Numbered from the stretch's first letter, positions 451 to 53,010 are shown. The stretch is DNA of 64,000 nt from a virus (IMGVR_UViG_3300018080_005856:1-64000), one strand, 5' to 3'. Program-made: numbers and translations. The notes: a model not told the origin generated them from the letters alone.

Positions 451-1186
451 TGTCTATATTCAAGAAGCCGAACAGAGGTCAAAATCATATCCCAAAGATA
501 AAGAACTGATGGAAGCTGCCAATGAGTTCAGGATACACACATGCAGAGTAATGTATTCCTATAATCTTACATGGGCAGGAGTTCCTATAATCCAAACTCC
601 GTGGGATATCCAGGCATTTCAGGAACTGGTATGGAAAGTAAAACCAGAGGTTATAATAGAAACAGGAATAGCCTTCGGCGGGTCTCTAATGTTGAGTTCC
701 ACAATGCTGGGACTTCTAGAAGATTGTAGTATTATAACGGAAGGAGTAGTGGTTGGAATAGATATAGATATAAGGGAACACAATAGGATAGCTATAGAGA
801 ATCATCCACTTTCCAAACGTATACATATGATGGAGGGGTCCAGTACTGATCAATCCATATTATCTGAGGTGTCTGATATTGCAAGCGGTAAGAAGACTCT
901 AGTATGCCTGGATAGTAATCATACACATGAACATGTGCTAGAAGAACTAAAATTATACACTCCACTAGTCAGTAAAGAGAGTTACTGCATTGTATATGAT
1001 ACAGGTATTGCTGAAATTCCTGAAGATAAATTACGCCCAAGAGAATGGAATAGACACCGGAACCCAAAGAGTGCGGTGAATGAGTTTCTAACAACTACTT
1101 CTGAGTTTGAAATAGACAGCTCTTTCGATGAGAAATATCTGATCCCGGCCGCTACTGGAGGGTACCTAAGGAGAACCCATGAGTAG
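434..1186 (+). CDS. CmcI (cephalosporin hydroxylase)-family SAM-dependent sugar O-methyltransferase
   Basis: Family motifs YSYNLTWAGVPIIQ, KPEVIIETGIAFGGS, EGSS, LDSNHTHEHVLEEL, YCIVYDT, NPKSAV. Confidence 0.85.
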   Translation: MRNPIDVYIQEAEQRSKSYPKDKELMEAANEFRIHTCRVMYSYNLTWAGVPIIQTPWDIQAFQELVWKVKPEVIIETGIAFGGSLMLSSTMLGLLEDCSIITEGVVVGIDIDIREHNRIAIENHPLSKRIHMMEGSSTDQSILSEVSDIASGKKTLVCLDSNHTHEHVLEELKLYTPLVSKESYCIVYDTGIAEIPEDKLRPREWNRHRNPKSAVNEFLTTTSEFEIDSSFDEKYLIPAATGGYLRRTHE

Positions 1187-1958
1187 GAAATACATTATAG
1201 GAATAACTGCCCTAGATAGGGCACCGAACGAGAACTACATTGAGAACACTCTAAATAATCTTGAACAGTCTGGCGTGTTCCATTCCGACGTGCCTCATGA
1301 GGTCCATATCTTTGATTCAGGAAGCCATAGCTTAGATTACATACCAAAAGCATATGACCTAGAGATACATTCTCCGTTACAAAGCGAGGTAGATAAGATA
1401 AGGGAGATATACAACGATCCTGAGAGAAATCAAATAACCCTGAGACAGAATATGGTTTGCATGGCCGACTATTTCTCCAAAAGCGATGCTGACTTCGCAA
1501 TAATGATGGAGGATGACATAGAAACATGTGGAAGCTTCCTAGAGAGCGTAGATTTGTGGGTAGATAGGAATTTCAAACCACAAAAGGATAAGCTCATGCC
1601 AGTGGTGTCGTTCTTCACCCCTCGTGTTGGAGTACGGGCAGCATTCAGGTCTGGACAATCAGTATGGAGATATCCAGCCCATAAGTATTACGGTAGACAA
1701 TGTACTATGGTTAGAAAGGAGGATTGTGCATCTATAGCAGACTGGTTCATACAATTCTTTAAAGGAAAGAGTGGTGGTCATGATCTGGTATTACAGGGAT
1801 GGATGTTGAATAAATTCAGTAGAAGAACTCATCTATACTCATCTGCTCCGTGTTTTGCACAGCATATAGGGAGGTACTCTTCCTTTGTAGATAGAAAGAA
1901 GACAAGGATAAAGCCAATATCTCATAGTTATCAAGGAAGAGAGTGGAGGTATATTTGA
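1179..1958 (+). CDS. Putative GT-A glycosyltransferase
   Basis: IGITALDR N-terminus, MMEDD DxD-like motif, QHIG near the C-terminus, cluster context. Confidence 0.6.
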   Translation: MSRKYIIGITALDRAPNENYIENTLNNLEQSGVFHSDVPHEVHIFDSGSHSLDYIPKAYDLEIHSPLQSEVDKIREIYNDPERNQITLRQNMVCMADYFSKSDADFAIMMEDDIETCGSFLESVDLWVDRNFKPQKDKLMPVVSFFTPRVGVRAAFRSGQSVWRYPAHKYYGRQCTMVRKEDCASIADWFIQFFKGKSGGHDLVLQGWMLNKFSRRTHLYSSAPCFAQHIGRYSSFVDRKKTRIKPISHSYQGREWRYI

Positions 1959-49013: not shown

Positions 49014-51458
49014 TTAGCCAAGTAACCTCTCCGCATAGAGGCATGCCATACCATTCATACCTCTTACGTTGGAAACCTCCTTTCTCTCTACGAGTGCTTG
49101 CACGAACACCGCATATAGAACGATAGCCCTTTCGATCTTAGATACATCGAGTGTATCTATTATCTCTGGGTTATCATGGAGTTGTTTCCTGGTAGTTCCG
49201 ACAATCTTCTCAAGAAGAGTATCCACAACTACCATGTGGACATGAGCCATAGGCTTATGAGCTAACGCCCACATCTGCAGCATGACCTCTCTTTCTTCGG
49301 CGGAGATCAAAGGCTTAGCCGCTTTAATGTTGTCAGCACGAAACTCGCCAGCAACATCAAAGATCTTGTCGGTATCAAGCTCTACTCTATACACCTGACG
49401 TATAGCCTGAGCGAAGGATTCTGCAGTTCCTTCTCTCCAGCCGACAAGTTTACCACTGATGACAGTAGCGGTAGGGGACTCCCTGTCACCAATGAGAAGT
49501 TTACCAAGAACTGTGTCACACAGTTCATAGGCTTCATTGACCCCAACAGATAGGCCAACATACTTCTTAATCCCTTGGACACTGTCCTGGATAGACTGTG
49601 CCAGAGGTAGAAGATCACTCATAGCAGATTCTAAAGCATCTGACCGGAAATCATAGACAGTAGCCAGACATTTCATGTAAGCCGCTACAAGTATAGCTGT
49701 TCTCTCTTGACACCACCTGCCATGCATACAGGCTGTCCAGGGAGTAAGCTCACCTTCAGCAGGTACCGATGATTTATCTATCATTCCGAAATCATCAGTA
49801 GCCCGCACCATGCTTCTATACCCCGGGAGGAATAGAGCATGATCATCACAGTCAGACTGCCAACCAACTGTGGCTTCCAAACACACTACAGCCACGACTC
49901 CATCTACATCATCCAAGGTATGCTCAGATAGACGTAGATCTAAGAAGGAGCCCTTTGTAGTATTTGGATACCTGACCCCAGCAACAAAGTCAGATATTTC
50001 TCCAGTCCGAATAGTAAACTGAGTAAATCCAGACTGAAGTGCATCCCGCATTTCACGAGATGGTACAAACTCCCCAGGAAGAAGCTTGTGAACGTGACCA
50101 CCATCCACAACCACATGAGTCCTGTGTATTATTGCTGCATATACAGAACTCGGGGCATTGGCACTCATAAGAGCCTTAGACCTCTTATTAAGTCCCATTA
50201 TGACTCCCGGATCGTTTGCAGGAAGATATCCAAGAACATACTTAGACAGATAGCTATCTATAAGTACATCCTCTTCATCATTGGATAGACCCATATCCAA
50301 GTGACGATACATGGATCCCCTGAGATCATTCAGAGCTGCAGTCTTACCAAATGCCTCTTTACGGAGAAGAGCCATGATATCTTTCCGTGTGACCTTATCC
50401 CACTGTCCAAGAACCATATAGAACAGGTTCAGGCGATAAGCCTCCTTCTGTTCATGGTTCTCAATCTTGGACAGCCCGATAGTCATGTCGAGAACTACGG
50501 AGTCTTTCCCGGCATAATCTACCTTTATCCATTTGATAGCCGAGTCATAACACCAACCATCAAACTCCTCTGGAATAGGCTTTCCATCTGGTCCTATAGA
50601 AGCCTGTGCTGGGGAGTGGAGCAGCCTCCCCTTCACTATTCCAGTCTTTCCATCCATAGGAACAAGACCTCTTACAAGACCAAAGTCCCCGGATTGTAGG
50701 ATACTTGCTCTGCGGACTAAGATCACACCATCCGCATCCAGAGTATTACCTACTTCAGAAAGCTCCTCTGGGAATACCTTTATCTTGAGCTGATCAGGCA
50801 TTCCGAGGATCTCAGACCAACCGTCTTTACCCGCCCTTATGCGAAGGACGTTGACCTCTTGATCTGATACGTTGCCACACGCTTCACGGATAACGTCAGC
50901 AAACATGTCCCTATTCACCGAAACTATTCCATTCAGAATGGTTTCAGCTCTCCTGGAGGATATCCAGGAAGGATGTGCCGGGAATGCTACACCCTTAACA
51001 CCTGTCATCTTGAGGGCATACTCAAAGAGTCTACCTCTCAGAAAGGTGCTACATGAAATCAGGTTGAGATTAAAGCGCTCCTTTCCCTTCTGATTCCGGT
51101 TCCTTTTAGCTATCTGTTGACCGTTGTACTTTAAGCCAGCACAATAGCTACGGCCTGCACGAGATCTCCGCATATCCCTTGCGAGCTCGACACCGAGGAC
51201 TTCTGCCAGTGCTGCAGCTGTAAATGTCTTAGTAACATCTACAGCCACCTGACGAAGCTCTCTTTTCCTGAAGGCCTTAAATGCCTTAAAGACATAAGAC
51301 CCAGGGAGGACGATCTGATTCTTTATATACGGTGATACAAAGAACCTGTCCCCGTTCCAAACAAGCGTCTTTCCAGGCAATGGCCTGAAGTCAGCTTGCT
51401 CAGATGCCCGGAGAGATGACCCTCCGAGTAACAACTTAAGTAACCCATGATTATCCAT
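49014..51458 (-). CDS. Divergent single-subunit two-barrel RNA polymerase (YonO / cellular-RdRP-like), 814 aa
   Basis: Motifs in the expected order: DADGVILV, LVRG...IVKG.L, DSAIKW, VAGVRYP, WQSDCDDH (DxDGD position). AGGAGGT RBS. Confidence 0.7.
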   Translation of the reverse strand: MDNHGLLKLLLGGSSLRASEQADFRPLPGKTLVWNGDRFFVSPYIKNQIVLPGSYVFKAFKAFRKRELRQVAVDVTKTFTAAALAEVLGVELARDMRRSRAGRSYCAGLKYNGQQIAKRNRNQKGKERFNLNLISCSTFLRGRLFEYALKMTGVKGVAFPAHPSWISSRRAETILNGIVSVNRDMFADVIREACGNVSDQEVNVLRIRAGKDGWSEILGMPDQLKIKVFPEELSEVGNTLDADGVILVRRASILQSGDFGLVRGLVPMDGKTGIVKGRLLHSPAQASIGPDGKPIPEEFDGWCYDSAIKWIKVDYAGKDSVVLDMTIGLSKIENHEQKEAYRLNLFYMVLGQWDKVTRKDIMALLRKEAFGKTAALNDLRGSMYRHLDMGLSNDEEDVLIDSYLSKYVLGYLPANDPGVIMGLNKRSKALMSANAPSSVYAAIIHRTHVVVDGGHVHKLLPGEFVPSREMRDALQSGFTQFTIRTGEISDFVAGVRYPNTTKGSFLDLRLSEHTLDDVDGVVAVVCLEATVGWQSDCDDHALFLPGYRSMVRATDDFGMIDKSSVPAEGELTPWTACMHGRWCQERTAILVAAYMKCLATVYDFRSDALESAMSDLLPLAQSIQDSVQGIKKYVGLSVGVNEAYELCDTVLGKLLIGDRESPTATVISGKLVGWREGTAESFAQAIRQVYRVELDTDKIFDVAGEFRADNIKAAKPLISAEEREVMLQMWALAHKPMAHVHMVVVDTLLEKIVGTTRKQLHDNPEIIDTLDVSKIERAIVLYAVFVQALVERKEVSNVRGMNGMACLYAERLLG

Positions 51459-51541
51459 AGGGTACCTCCTGTATTTATTGTATGCCTCTGTGAGACACCC
51501 TCATAGTATTGAACTCAATAGTTCAATACCCAGAGGCTGCC

Positions 51542-51634
51542 TCATAAACACATACTACAGGGTATAACAAGTTGTTTGGCACAGTCACGATGTGAAGACT
51601 CACAACTGTGCATGCGTCGGTGTCGATATACCAT
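51542..51634 (-). CDS. 30-aa Cys/His-rich peptide (not in the ORF track)
   Basis: MVYRHRRMHSCESSHRDCAKQLVIPCSMCL, AGGAGGT RBS. Confidence 0.4.
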   Translation of the reverse strand: MVYRHRRMHSCESSHRDCAKQLVIPCSMCL

Positions 51635-51683: not shown

Positions 51684-51725
51684 GCGTCCGCCCGGGAGTC
51701 GAACCCGGGTAAGCGCCATTCGGAC
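51684..51725 (-). ncRNA. Minimal tRNA-like element (acceptor-like stem plus canonical T-arm)
   Basis: GTCCG-aatggcgctta-CCCGGG TTCGACT CCCGGG-CGGAC, directly after a stop codon. Confidence 0.6.
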
Positions 51726-52034
51726 TTACTTCCACTCAGACAGGGGTGGCCCCTCCAGAGCGAGGTGTTCCCCCATCATATCTCTGGCATCATCCAGCAA
51801 CTGATCAAGATCAATCACTGGTTTGCCTACTTCCGCCTTAAGCTCGGTAGGAATATCAGCTACAGCCATGATGTGATTCCATGACTGTAAGAACTGTTCT
51901 GCCTCCTTCTTACTTAAGGCCTTCCCACTATACGCTTCAATAAGCAGCATAGTGTCCTTCACTGCAGTGGTTACCTGCTCCATCCTTCTCTTCATCCTTC
52001 TTGTGACTTCTTGTAACTCTATTGCCTTTGACAT
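51726..52034 (-). CDS. Hypothetical helical protein
   Basis: AGGAGGT RBS directly after hammerhead A. Confidence 0.7.
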   Translation of the reverse strand: MSKAIELQEVTRRMKRRMEQVTTAVKDTMLLIEAYSGKALSKKEAEQFLQSWNHIMAVADIPTELKAEVGKPVIDLDQLLDDARDMMGEHLALEGPPLSEWK

Positions 52035-52050: not shown

Positions 52051-52106
52051 TATGTTTCGGATCCCGCTACAGATCCTCATCAGTGGGCTTAAGCTACCCA
52101 TACATA
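52051..52106 (-). ncRNA. Type III hammerhead ribozyme A (GUA site, cut between 52101 and 52100)
   Basis: TATGTA|TGGG-tagcttaag-CCCA CTGATGA GGATC-tgtagcgg-GATCC GAAACATA. Intact core and three stems. Confidence 0.92.
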
Positions 52107-52136
52107 GGGACAGTTTTACATCATGTCCCAGGATGT
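52107..52136 (-). ncRNA. H-type pseudoknot motif A
   Basis: ACATC CT GGGACA T GATGT AAAAC TGTCCC. Covaries with copy B. Confidence 0.75.
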
Positions 52137-52141
52137 AATGC

Positions 52142-52330
52142 TTAACGATATTGAGATAGATCTATACCTTTAACATTAAACCTACCAAATACTGCTTCAC
52201 GCTCAGCATTAACAGCCTTAAGCTTTCTTAAAGCCATCTGCACCTTTGCAGCGTGATACGGGTGAGCCTTGCAGAATTCAGCTATCTGCTCTGGGCTCAT
52301 TTCGAGTAAAGTTTTAACTAGTTCGACCAT
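52142..52330 (-). CDS. 62-aa hypothetical protein flanked by the hammerheads
   Basis: AGGAGGT RBS directly after hammerhead B. Confidence 0.7.
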   Translation of the reverse strand: MVELVKTLLEMSPEQIAEFCKAHPYHAAKVQMALRKLKAVNAEREAVFGRFNVKGIDLSQYR

Positions 52331-52347
52331 AATGGACCTCCTATAGT

Positions 52348-52406
52348 AGTGTTTCGGCTCTTGCTTAGGGAGCCATCTTCAGTGGGCTTAAAGCTACCCA
52401 GACACC
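52348..52406 (-). ncRNA. Type III hammerhead ribozyme B (GUC site, cut between 52401 and 52400)
   Basis: GGTGTC|TGGG-tagctttaag-CCCA CTGAAGA T GGCTC-cctaagcaa-GAGCC GAAACACT. The loops can pair (GCUU/AAGC). Confidence 0.88.
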
Positions 52407-52434
52407 GGGTAGTTTTACATCATACCCAGGATGC
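52407..52434 (-). ncRNA. H-type pseudoknot motif B
   Basis: GCATC CT GGGTA T GATGT AAAAC TACCC. Confidence 0.75.
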
Positions 52435-52440
52435 TTGAGC

Positions 52441-52614
52441 TTACTTCTGTGTAGATACGCACTGGCCAGTAACTTTGTTGCAGACTACTTTGCCTTTGAA
52501 AGCATCACTAATCTGCTTGTCCTGCCTTGCTGCCAAAACTACAAACAGAGCCAAGAAAGCTACTGTAGCTACACCAACCATAAACTCTCCAAACTTCTCT
52601 TTTCTTGTATTCAT
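52441..52614 (-). CDS. 57-aa single-TM protein (not in the ORF track), first gene of the leftward operon
   Basis: MNTRKEKFGEFMVGVATVAFLALFVVLA...C....C, AGGAG RBS. Confidence 0.65.
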   Translation of the reverse strand: MNTRKEKFGEFMVGVATVAFLALFVVLAARQDKQISDAFKGKVVCNKVTGQCVSTQK

Positions 52615-53010
52615 ACTGATTCTCCTAGTTGCGGACTATACCCATTGATTCTGCAGGGGATTTAACTGCAGATCTCATACACTGTTATCCAGGTGGTATG
52701 AGTTACCTGTACGGCTCCATTGACTGATCCCAATGGCGCGCTATACTTGTCTACTCGTCCAATACGGTGTATAGCAACCTCTTGGCGCGAGGGTAGAAGT
52801 ACCCGGGGGCTCGAACCAAGCAGATCCGATCCTCTCTAATACTCACCTGGTCCCGTTATACCCAAAACCGGGTTTGGCCCCCTATAGGGATTTTTGTCTT
52901 GACTCCTGGATATGGTTCTTGTAATCTTATGGGTGATAACCCTACGAACTTTTCTGGAACCCTGTAGATGGTATAAAGAGATCCTATGATTTTTGATACA
53001 GGTGGGGATT

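Follow-up and report, generated by a model that had tools for sequence, protein, structure and literature searches.

Two type III hammerhead ribozymes in a phage operon each abut a widespread, apparently undescribed pseudoknot

The locus described here bears on the function of bacterial and phage hammerhead ribozymes: two hammerheads lie in the gaps of a viral operon, and the ribozyme has a fixed partner placed with nucleotide precision. What do the ribozyme and its partner do for the genes around them? The DNA analysed (the window) was the first 64 kb of one linear IMG/VR virus contig of 150,487 bp, with a G+C content of 42% and a CheckV completeness of about 79%. On the minus strand, a series of small same-strand genes runs from 53213 to 49014 and ends with an 814-aa gene. 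Both intergenic gaps at 52440-52331 and 52141-52035 are occupied by cassettes, called A (upstream) and B (downstream) below. The order within the gaps is a stop codon, 5–6 nt, an H-type pseudoknot of 28–30 nt, an abutting hammerhead, 6–7 nt, GGAGG, and ATG (Table 1).

Table 1. Coordinates of the operon features, listed from upstream to downstream.
Feature	Coordinates	Strand	Details
57-aa ORF	52441..52614	minus	stop codon 52443-52441, 6 nt before pseudoknot A
Pseudoknot A, H-type	52407..52434	minus	S1 GCAUC/GAUGU, L1 C(U), S2 (U)GGGU/ACCC(G), L2 AU, L3 AAAACU
Type III hammerhead A	52348..52406 (52406-52348)	minus	Rfam match, descriptor scan, fold, direct reading
RBS GGAGG of the 62-aa ORF	52337..52341	minus	6 nt past the stem III end of hammerhead A
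62-aa ORF	52142..52330	minus	without family match; stop codon 5 nt before pseudoknot B
Pseudoknot B	52107..52136	minus	S1 ACAUC/GAUGU, S2 GGGAC/GUCCC, L3 AAAACU
Type III hammerhead B	52051..52106 (52106-52051)	minus	Rfam match, descriptor scan, fold, direct reading
102-aa ORF	51726..52034	minus	RBS GGAGG 52045-52041, after hammerhead B
tRNA-like acceptor/T-arm minihelix	51686..51725	minus	T-loop UUCGACU; directly after the stop codon of the 102-aa ORF
Near-perfect hairpin of ~84 nt	51476..51559	minus	dG -44 kcal/mol, z -6.65; just before the polymerase RBS
814-aa gene, predicted single-subunit two-barrel RNA polymerase (QDE-1/YonO-like)	49014..51458	minus	structure model, Foldseek

By every sequence and structure criterion, the two hammerheads appear genuine. 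Direct reading found the core complete in both copies (C3-U4-G5-A6-N7-G8-A9, G12-A13-A14, the A15.1-U16.1 pair, and H17), with H17 being C in hammerhead A and A in hammerhead B. The upstream copy has the stem III GGUGU/ACACU and the triplet GUC, with a predicted cut after C52401 (52401|52400), and the downstream copy has the stem III UAUGU/ACAUA and the triplet GUA, with a predicted cut after A52101 (52101|52100). The core of hammerhead B reads CUGAUGA. That of hammerhead A reads CUGAAGA, which is tolerated because core position 7 is free, and a single additional U is inserted between A9 and stem II. Helix lengths are alike in the two copies: loops close stem I (5 bp) and stem II (5–6 bp), and stem III (5 bp) is open. 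The three-way junction was the minimum-energy fold of each ribozyme taken alone. As judged by reading, GCUU of loop I could pair with AAGC of loop II in hammerhead A (4 bp), and GCU with AGC in hammerhead B (3 bp). The cleavage rate of hammerhead A could be low because of the extra U beside stem II and the possible loop pairs numbering only 3–4.

A type III hammerhead descriptor was written for this analysis, with dinucleotide shuffles as the specificity control. Hammerheads A and B were its sole sites on either strand of the entire 150,487-bp contig, and no match was found in 40 dinucleotide shuffles when the descriptor was set to the actual stem lengths of A and B. In a 701-nt search, the Rfam model RF00008 (Hammerhead_3) matched 52108-52049 with 31.7 bits (E = 8.1e-5) and 52408-52346 with 23.5 bits (E = 0.018). 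The preliminary description of the locus had reported two type III hammerheads with intact cores and compensatory stem changes between them, and both statements hold up against the direct reading, the Rfam alignments, the descriptor, the shuffles, and the folds. The comparison with Hammerhead_3 that it had proposed gave a divided answer: both copies match the model, but both score below the curated gathering threshold of 48.5 bits. For this reason, an Rfam scan of the whole window at gathering thresholds returned only two tRNAs, and the hammerheads surfaced at E-value thresholds only. Plant viroid and satellite sequences predominate in the RF00008 model, so that its gathering threshold is a scoring rather than a structural criterion. 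When IMG/VR was searched with patterns based on stem I, a 14-base pattern gave chance matches only and a longer one gave none, suggesting that the exact ribozyme has no close copy in that collection.

The same architecture was found elsewhere. Two unrelated contigs, L547 (VFSW01071707.1) and L233 (to which the TARA contig L568 is identical), each carry a pseudoknot-hammerhead cassette whose stem sequences are wholly different. In L233, two hammerheads flank a 332-aa gene (1 kb). The one on the 5' side is of type III (35.7 bits), and between the preceding stop codon and this ribozyme, a plain 12-bp hairpin (dG -19.8, z -7.2) takes the place of a pseudoknot. L547 has a single pseudoknot-hammerhead cassette, with two type II hammerheads upstream. 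The second hammerhead of L233 and the type II pair of L547 indicate that these loci are hammerhead clusters of the kind already described, and the single cassette of L547 and the hairpin partner in L233 indicate that what is conserved is not a unit with a cassette at either end. The candidate pairing between loops I and II of A and B is not conserved in L233 or L547.

These comparisons also bear on whether the hammerheads could be inactive relics, with the similarity of the cassettes reflecting nothing but a recent local duplication. Cassettes A and B are 81% identical, and the sub-threshold Rfam scores and the insertion next to the core of copy A would be in keeping with decay. Against this, neither copy has lost any invariant core position, and the differences between the copies are compensatory at one pair in stem II, two in stem III, and two in stem 2 of the pseudoknot. 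Moreover, the extra U of hammerhead A is found in the independent cassette of L233, and the same architecture is seen again in unrelated contigs whose stems all differ. We find the relic explanation barely credible, and consider it very likely that the hammerheads cleave themselves in vivo.

The two predicted cuts delimit exactly 300 nt, which comprise the body of hammerhead A, the RBS GGAGG, the 62-aa ORF, pseudoknot B, and the 5' strand of stem III of hammerhead B. These cuts, this length, and these contents, apart from the stem III strand, had been given before, and our reading agrees with them; the exact length carries no detectable meaning. It had also been proposed that the operon is cut into monocistronic units, which is supported by the findings that the ribozymes are genuine and lie in intercistronic gaps on the same strand as the genes, in line with the reading of a prophage arrangement published earlier (Perreault 2011, PMC3088659). 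On this analysis, cleavage of the transcript by the hammerheads probably yields messages of one gene each. Other parts of the operon likewise speak for heavy processing. The tRNA-like minihelix after the 102-aa ORF, which was not called by ARAGORN, is a candidate third processing site, and the long hairpin before the polymerase gene is a candidate RNase III-type site. A relative with a polymerase of 43% identity lacks a hammerhead at the corresponding junction and has there a tRNA-like RNA that is Y-shaped and very stable (z -6.3).

The pseudoknot had been treated as a feature of this locus, and that part of the preliminary description did not stand. A search of IMG/VR with a pseudoknot-tail pattern found the same element in many contigs with no hammerhead downstream and with compensatory variation in S2. 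Two 19-base patterns of the loops and tail, in which S1 was left free, had at least 120 IMG/VR matches each, compared to ~3 expected by chance. With a descriptor demanding both helices and the conserved linkers, we counted 380 pseudoknot copies, roughly 370 of them distinct, at 251 loci in 4.47 Mb of fetched viral DNA, and one copy in shuffled DNA. A looser descriptor gave matches no better than those in shuffles and was dropped in favour of the one requiring the linkers. About two thirds of the first pattern matches were found to belong to a coding-gene family and not to the RNA.

In the consensus, S1 has 4–6 bp with a C-G closing pair, L1 is C or CU, S2 is (U)GRGY paired with RCYC(A), L2 is AU, and L3 has 5–9 nt with AAACU at its end. 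The base frequencies in the linkers are biased upwards, as the collection was seeded with patterns containing those bases. Pseudoknots A and B both fit the conserved linkers, including the C-G closure of S1, L1 C(U), L2 AU, and the AAACU end of L3. Pairing in S1 was tested on 100 fixed windows, S1 lying outside the search pattern. The S1 cells were paired in 82.8% of cases compared to 55.6% in shuffles, and none of 500 shuffles reached the observed pairing or covariation; controls in which S1 was slid gave 28–42% pairing. Two S1 positions were paired in 100% of cases with 4–5 pair types, and there were 101 distinct S1 sequences. S2 took the forms GGGC/GCCC, GAGC/GCUC, GGCC/GGCC, AAGC/GCUU, GGGAC/GUCCC, and GGGUU/AACCC. 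When the cassettes were folded without pseudoknot energies, competitor hairpins appeared.

No match to the pseudoknot was found in Rfam 15, either in the 701-nt search or in a 48-nt search at E 10, and PreQ1-I (RF00522) gave no match at E up to 10 in both searches. Two known pseudoknotted RNAs were considered and rejected as its identity: the Pistol ribozyme, which had no Rfam match at the pseudoknot, and the tmRNA pseudoknot, which had no Rfam match there either, the element of the crAss-like record cr7_1 lying in the spacer before the tmRNA coding piece. A BLAST search with the 34-nt pseudoknot sequence against named phages returned two crAss-like records only; conserved stretches of this kind are too short to be picked up by BLAST. 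No description was found when the literature was searched by topic and motif string, and the element may be present without a name in bulk catalogues like PMC10690425. To judge from these sequence comparisons, the ~29-nt pseudoknot is an independent and widespread phage module that is apparently undescribed. It is not part of the ribozyme but a portable module, a widespread RNA family missing from Rfam.

The placement of the pseudoknot followed strict rules. About half of the copies start 4–11 nt (mode 5–6) after the same-strand stop codon of an ORF of at least 50 aa, and a position within a long ORF was seen for only 10 of the 380. Such close spacing downstream of the stop codon may alternatively point to an interaction with the terminating ribosome, rather than to a 3'-end cap. 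Thirty-one copies end 3–12 nt before the 5' end of a same-strand tRNA, 19 of them at 3–4 nt; none ends 13–73 nt before a tRNA 5' end, and no coupling to the 3' side of tRNAs was found. The order gene, pseudoknot, tRNA was seen in 16 of the 31 tRNA-linked copies, which have a stop codon 4–14 nt upstream. The pseudoknot also stands before a permuted tmRNA (Rfam RF04321, 66.4 bits) in the crAss-like phages cr7_1 and cr124_1; it stops 3 nt ahead of the 5' end of the coding piece, which is a further RNase P site. In all four distinct cassettes (A, B, and those of L233 and L547), the gap between the pseudoknot and the scissile bond is 5–6 nt, the minimum that stem III permits. Terminators were not enriched after the pseudoknot (8 compared to 10 in controls), and an RBS with a start codon was enriched 5–25 nt downstream of it. 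A recognizable processing site abuts only ~10% of the pseudoknots, and the remaining ~90% precede an ordinary RBS and gene.

The anatomy, conservation, covariation, and positional rules observed for the cassette and its pseudoknot fit a model of operon punctuation in which cutting by a hammerhead or RNase P is coupled with capping of the new mRNA 3' end by the pseudoknot, and we consider this model as a whole reasonably probable. Each gap between the small genes of this phage early operon would then hold a compact processing cassette. The hammerhead would cut itself during RNA synthesis; the downstream message would have a 5'-OH at its start, with the folded ribozyme body immediately ahead of its RBS, and the upstream message would end with the pseudoknot and a 5–6-nt tail bearing a 2',3'-cyclic phosphate. 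Phages would place the pseudoknot between the stop codon and any RNA cutting site, be it a hammerhead or the 5' end of a tRNA or tmRNA, and the pseudoknot would serve as a 3'-end cap halting 3'-to-5' exonucleases, so that each excised message would be stable. In bacteria, PNPase and RNase II are classically held back by stem-loops at 3' ends; 3' exonucleases are also stopped by compact pseudoknots such as evopreQ1, small H-type ones serve as engineered 3' caps, and RNase R requires a 3' overhang of about 7 nt.

Several observations point to the new 3' end. The pseudoknot is always on the upstream product and as close to the cut as geometry permits, suggesting that its job belongs to that end. 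The plain hairpin in the pseudoknot slot of L233 fits a generic 3'-terminal protective structure. A protective role of the pseudoknot at 3' ends thus seems to us nearly an even chance. The wider proposal, that this is an abundant dedicated 3'-end cap which phages combine with interchangeable cutters to punctuate operons, is one that we put forward tentatively, as a serious possibility falling short of even. If it is true, the pseudoknot counters 3'-to-5' exonucleases much as xrRNAs counter 5'-to-3' ones, and the cassette is a natural, fully RNA-encoded 'cut and cap' insulator.

The spacing of 5–6 nt from the stop codon puts the knot at the entry of a terminating ribosome, so that it need not be unwound, and this is compatible with a cap. 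The spacing is also the main argument for a rival explanation, in which the pseudoknot blocks no exonuclease and is a folding insulator or ribosome buffer that shields the folding of the following ribozyme or tRNA from the ribosome and the upstream coding RNA and so keeps processing efficient. This spacing equals that of recoding pseudoknots at the ribosome entry channel, the element would on this view always lie 5' of a structured RNA that needs to fold quickly, and competitor pairings exist between parts of the cassette and the hammerhead strands. We regard this explanation as unlikely, given that the ordinary RBS and gene which follow ~90% of the copies offer no structured RNA to shield, that a plain hairpin replaces the pseudoknot in L233, and that insulation would not call for a spacing as tight as the 3–4 nt to RNase P sites. 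Alternatively, the pseudoknot might bind a protein or ligand, as a translational operator, a site for an S1-like or phage factor, or a preQ1-like aptamer, and so regulate termination and re-initiation or self-cleavage. The loop and tail nucleotides (C-CUGRGY-AU-G and AAACU) are indeed conserved beyond the needs of the helices, the topology and size resemble those of the preQ1-I aptamer, and an alternative 8-bp hairpin in cassette A would disable the hammerhead if the pseudoknot were open. That hairpin, however, is not conserved in cassette B, the 48-nt search at E 10 matched neither PreQ1 nor any other riboswitch in Rfam, and several copies per genome lie beside unrelated genes with no conserved neighbouring gene seen. 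A regulatory binding site is in our view quite improbable.

A further explanation concerns the excised RNA as a whole. According to the preliminary description, the 300-nt single-gene unit could circularise, and the circle might resist re-cleavage with a chimeric stem III of just 3 pairs. The ends could be joined by host RtcB or by self-ligation of the hammerhead. The arithmetic of the junction is correct, with a stem III of 3 Watson-Crick pairs (given before as ~3 bp), the 5'-OH and 2',3'-cyclic phosphate ends would be chemically compatible, and retrozymes and viroid-like RNAs are established to use tandem hammerheads in this way. The circle itself remains unsupported speculation and is very unlikely. 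No RtcB gene was found on the contig, which is about 79% complete, and tandem prophage hammerheads gave no detectable circular or spliced products (PMC3088659). The cassettes occur singly elsewhere, as in L547, or face a hammerhead with a hairpin, as in L233; the pseudoknot precedes tRNAs far more often, where formation of a circle is impossible; and ligation would be impeded by the structures at the two ends, a pseudoknot (3') and a folded ribozyme (5'). Stops occur in all three frames of the circle, which led us to reject rolling-circle translation and leaves the divisibility of the length by three without translational meaning. Cutting and 3'-end capping remain the explanation that we prefer for the cassette.

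The hammerheads belong to a known kind, and their tandem arrangement is already known. In prophages, clustered hammerheads (Rfam clan of Hammerhead_1, Hammerhead_II, and Hammerhead_3) lie on either side of single genes or of short blocks of genes, and cleavage in vitro was shown for tandem sets; their processing into single-gene mRNAs was proposed, and circular or spliced products were considered and looked for but not detected (Perreault 2011, PMC3088659). The hammerheads described here are likewise canonical and flank a single gene from the intergenic gaps of a phage operon. Unlike those clusters, the type III ribozymes here sit 5–6 nt downstream of a conserved H-type pseudoknot, which differs from the pseudoknot formed by loops I and II in PMC3088659. 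What is new is this conserved pseudoknot, placed between stop codons and RNA cut sites, beside the hammerhead clusters already known. As in retrozymes and viroid-like RNAs, two hammerheads bound a short unit with ligatable 5'-OH and 2',3'-cyclic phosphate ends. Unlike retrozymes, the unit lies in a DNA phage operon, contains an ORF with an RBS, has no repeats and no antisense copy, and would form a weak chimeric hammerhead at its junction. If the model of mRNA punctuation and 3'-end capping holds, it explains one class of phage hammerheads.

Similarities to other systems were also apparent. The pseudoknot shares its size (~28–32 nt) and topology with preQ1-I/evopreQ1 and with luteovirus frameshift pseudoknots, having an S1 of 4–5 bp, an L1 of 1–2 nt, an S2 of 4–5 bp, and an A-rich L3 of 6–7 nt. 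Its spacing after a codon resembles that of recoding pseudoknots. Unlike preQ1-I, it has no Rfam PreQ1 match, and its conserved loop CUGRGYAU differs; it lies after stop codons and before processing sites, and not in 5' leaders or at slippery sites. The engineered evopreQ1, derived from preQ1-I, caps the 3' ends of prime-editing guide RNAs, and engineered versions protect RNA 3' ends. Cutting of a polycistronic RNA at intergenic structured elements is also known from mitochondrial tRNA punctuation and from the RNase III sites of T7 early genes. Here, the junction elements are hammerheads, tRNAs, tmRNA, a tRNA-like minihelix, and a long hairpin, and in contrast to the mitochondrial and T7 systems, the cutting would be partly self-catalysed and a dedicated pseudoknot stands 5' of the cut. 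If the punctuation and capping model holds, the cassette would also provide engineered operons with a small natural part, about 85 nt long, that insulates and stabilizes cistrons.

The gene downstream of the cassettes had been called RdRP-like, and a confident structure model matching QDE-1 and phage two-barrel polymerases bears this out. The 814-aa protein had no matches in Pfam, PHROGs, NCBIfam, PDB sequences, or a phage tblastn search. No Pfam family was found at E up to 10, with PF05183 unmatched, and back-translated patterns found no relative in IMG/VR. Its identity was resolved by a profile search followed by structure prediction. An exhaustive search yielded 23 homologues, and an AF2 model built from 21 of the sequences had a pLDDT of 90.8 and a pTM of 0.87. 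The best PDB match of the model in Foldseek was Neurospora QDE-1 (E = 1.7e-10), and further matches were plant RDR2, the RNA polymerases of phages P32, P74 (both with E of about 1e-9), and P23-45, and gp66 of the crAss-like phage phi14:2. The Foldseek probability was 1.00 for QDE-1, RDR2, P32 gp64, P74 gp62, and phi14:2 gp66. The canonical DxDGD metal-binding loop is absent from the protein. Its metal loop reads SDCDDH (D-x-D-D), in which D536, D538, and D539 are invariant among 21 homologues, and the family consensus is GDGDDH. On the strength of the model, the protein is a single-subunit two-barrel RNA polymerase with a double-psi beta-barrel fold, sharing this fold with the QDE-1/YonO/crAss-like gp66 polymerases and differing from them in the D-x-D-D loop and the missing PF05183 match. 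Relatives of this polymerase at 41–43% identity have neither hammerhead nor pseudoknot, and the polymerase relatives L690 and L691 have no hammerheads. The closest relative, at 66% identity, has gaps of 113–138 nt between its small upstream genes, similar to the cassette gaps described here.

The 102-aa ORF of the window operon was followed, directly after its stop codon, by a tRNA-like minihelix resembling an acceptor/T-arm. The minihelix was not called by ARAGORN or Rfam, and it may represent an RNase P-type processing site at the operon's third junction. Downstream, a near-perfect hairpin of ~84 nt was located just 5' of the polymerase RBS, similar to the RNase III sites found between the early genes of phage T7.

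The 814-aa ORF itself is, according to its predicted structure, a QDE-1/YonO-like two-barrel RNA polymerase (model pLDDT 90.8; Foldseek E 1.7e-10), and only 23 homologues were found among 1.8 billion representative proteins. Its D-x-D-D metal loop is unusual, reading SDCDDH in the window protein compared to GDGDDH in the family consensus. In L690, the contig of a relative with a 43% identical polymerase, the gap 5' of the polymerase gene contained no hammerhead but a very stable Y-shaped tRNA-like RNA, which was recognised by neither ARAGORN nor Rfam. The window and both polymerase relatives (L690 and L691) also shared the leader element UUCGAGCC(C/U)CCGGG, located 5' of the small gene that opens the operon; it may belong to an early promoter, a leader or a T-loop-like structure.

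Features of the window and of related viral contigs
Feature	Location	Strand	Details
Two-barrel RNA polymerase, 814-aa ORF	window 49014-51458	-	predicted structure
Near-perfect hairpin	window 51476-51559	-	dG -44 kcal/mol, z -6.65
Cys-rich ORF, 30 aa	window, ATG at 51634		between minihelix and hairpin
tRNA-like minihelix	window 51686-51725	-	GUCCG ... CCCGGG-UUCGACU-CCCGGG-CGGAC
Possible 8-bp hairpin, cassette A	window 52378-52414	-	CUACCCGG paired with CUGGGUAG
Leader element	window ~52803-52822; L690 ~1080-1100; L691 ~1592-1610	- (window)	
Y-shaped tRNA-like RNA	L690:1641-1719	+	dG -51.8, z -6.3; T-arm UGGGUUCAAAUCCCA
Type III hammerhead	L233:6782-6837	-	
Two type II hammerheads	L547:43-106, 604-667	+	
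Pistol ribozyme	L169:6429-6497	+	66.9 bits
Group I intron	L325:9641-9846	+	59.9 bits
Permuted tmRNA	L495 (NC_055895.1, cr7_1) 1404-1639		Rfam RF04321
Permuted tmRNA	L397:11778-12019		Rfam RF04321

Within cassette A, an 8-bp hairpin could form between pseudoknot stem 2 (3' strand) and hammerhead stem I (5' strand), and it would disable both the pseudoknot and the hammerhead. This alternative pairing is probably incidental, because cassette B does not conserve it.

Both other cassette-bearing contigs had extra hammerheads, one of type III in L233 and two of type II in L547. These flanked single genes, and the two sets are therefore hammerhead clusters of the type known from prophages (Perreault 2011). 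Upstream of the extra L233 hammerhead, a 12-bp hairpin replaced the pseudoknot.

Two contigs with many pseudoknot modules also contained a Pistol ribozyme (L169) and a group I intron (L325), neither of which adjoined a module. Permuted (two-piece) tmRNA genes were present in crAss-like and other viral contigs (66–67 bits). In the crAss-like phage cr7_1 and in cr124_1, the pseudoknot module was located within the tmRNA spacer, 3 nt 5' of the coding piece, and in L397 a divergent variant was located 9 nt 5' of the coding piece.
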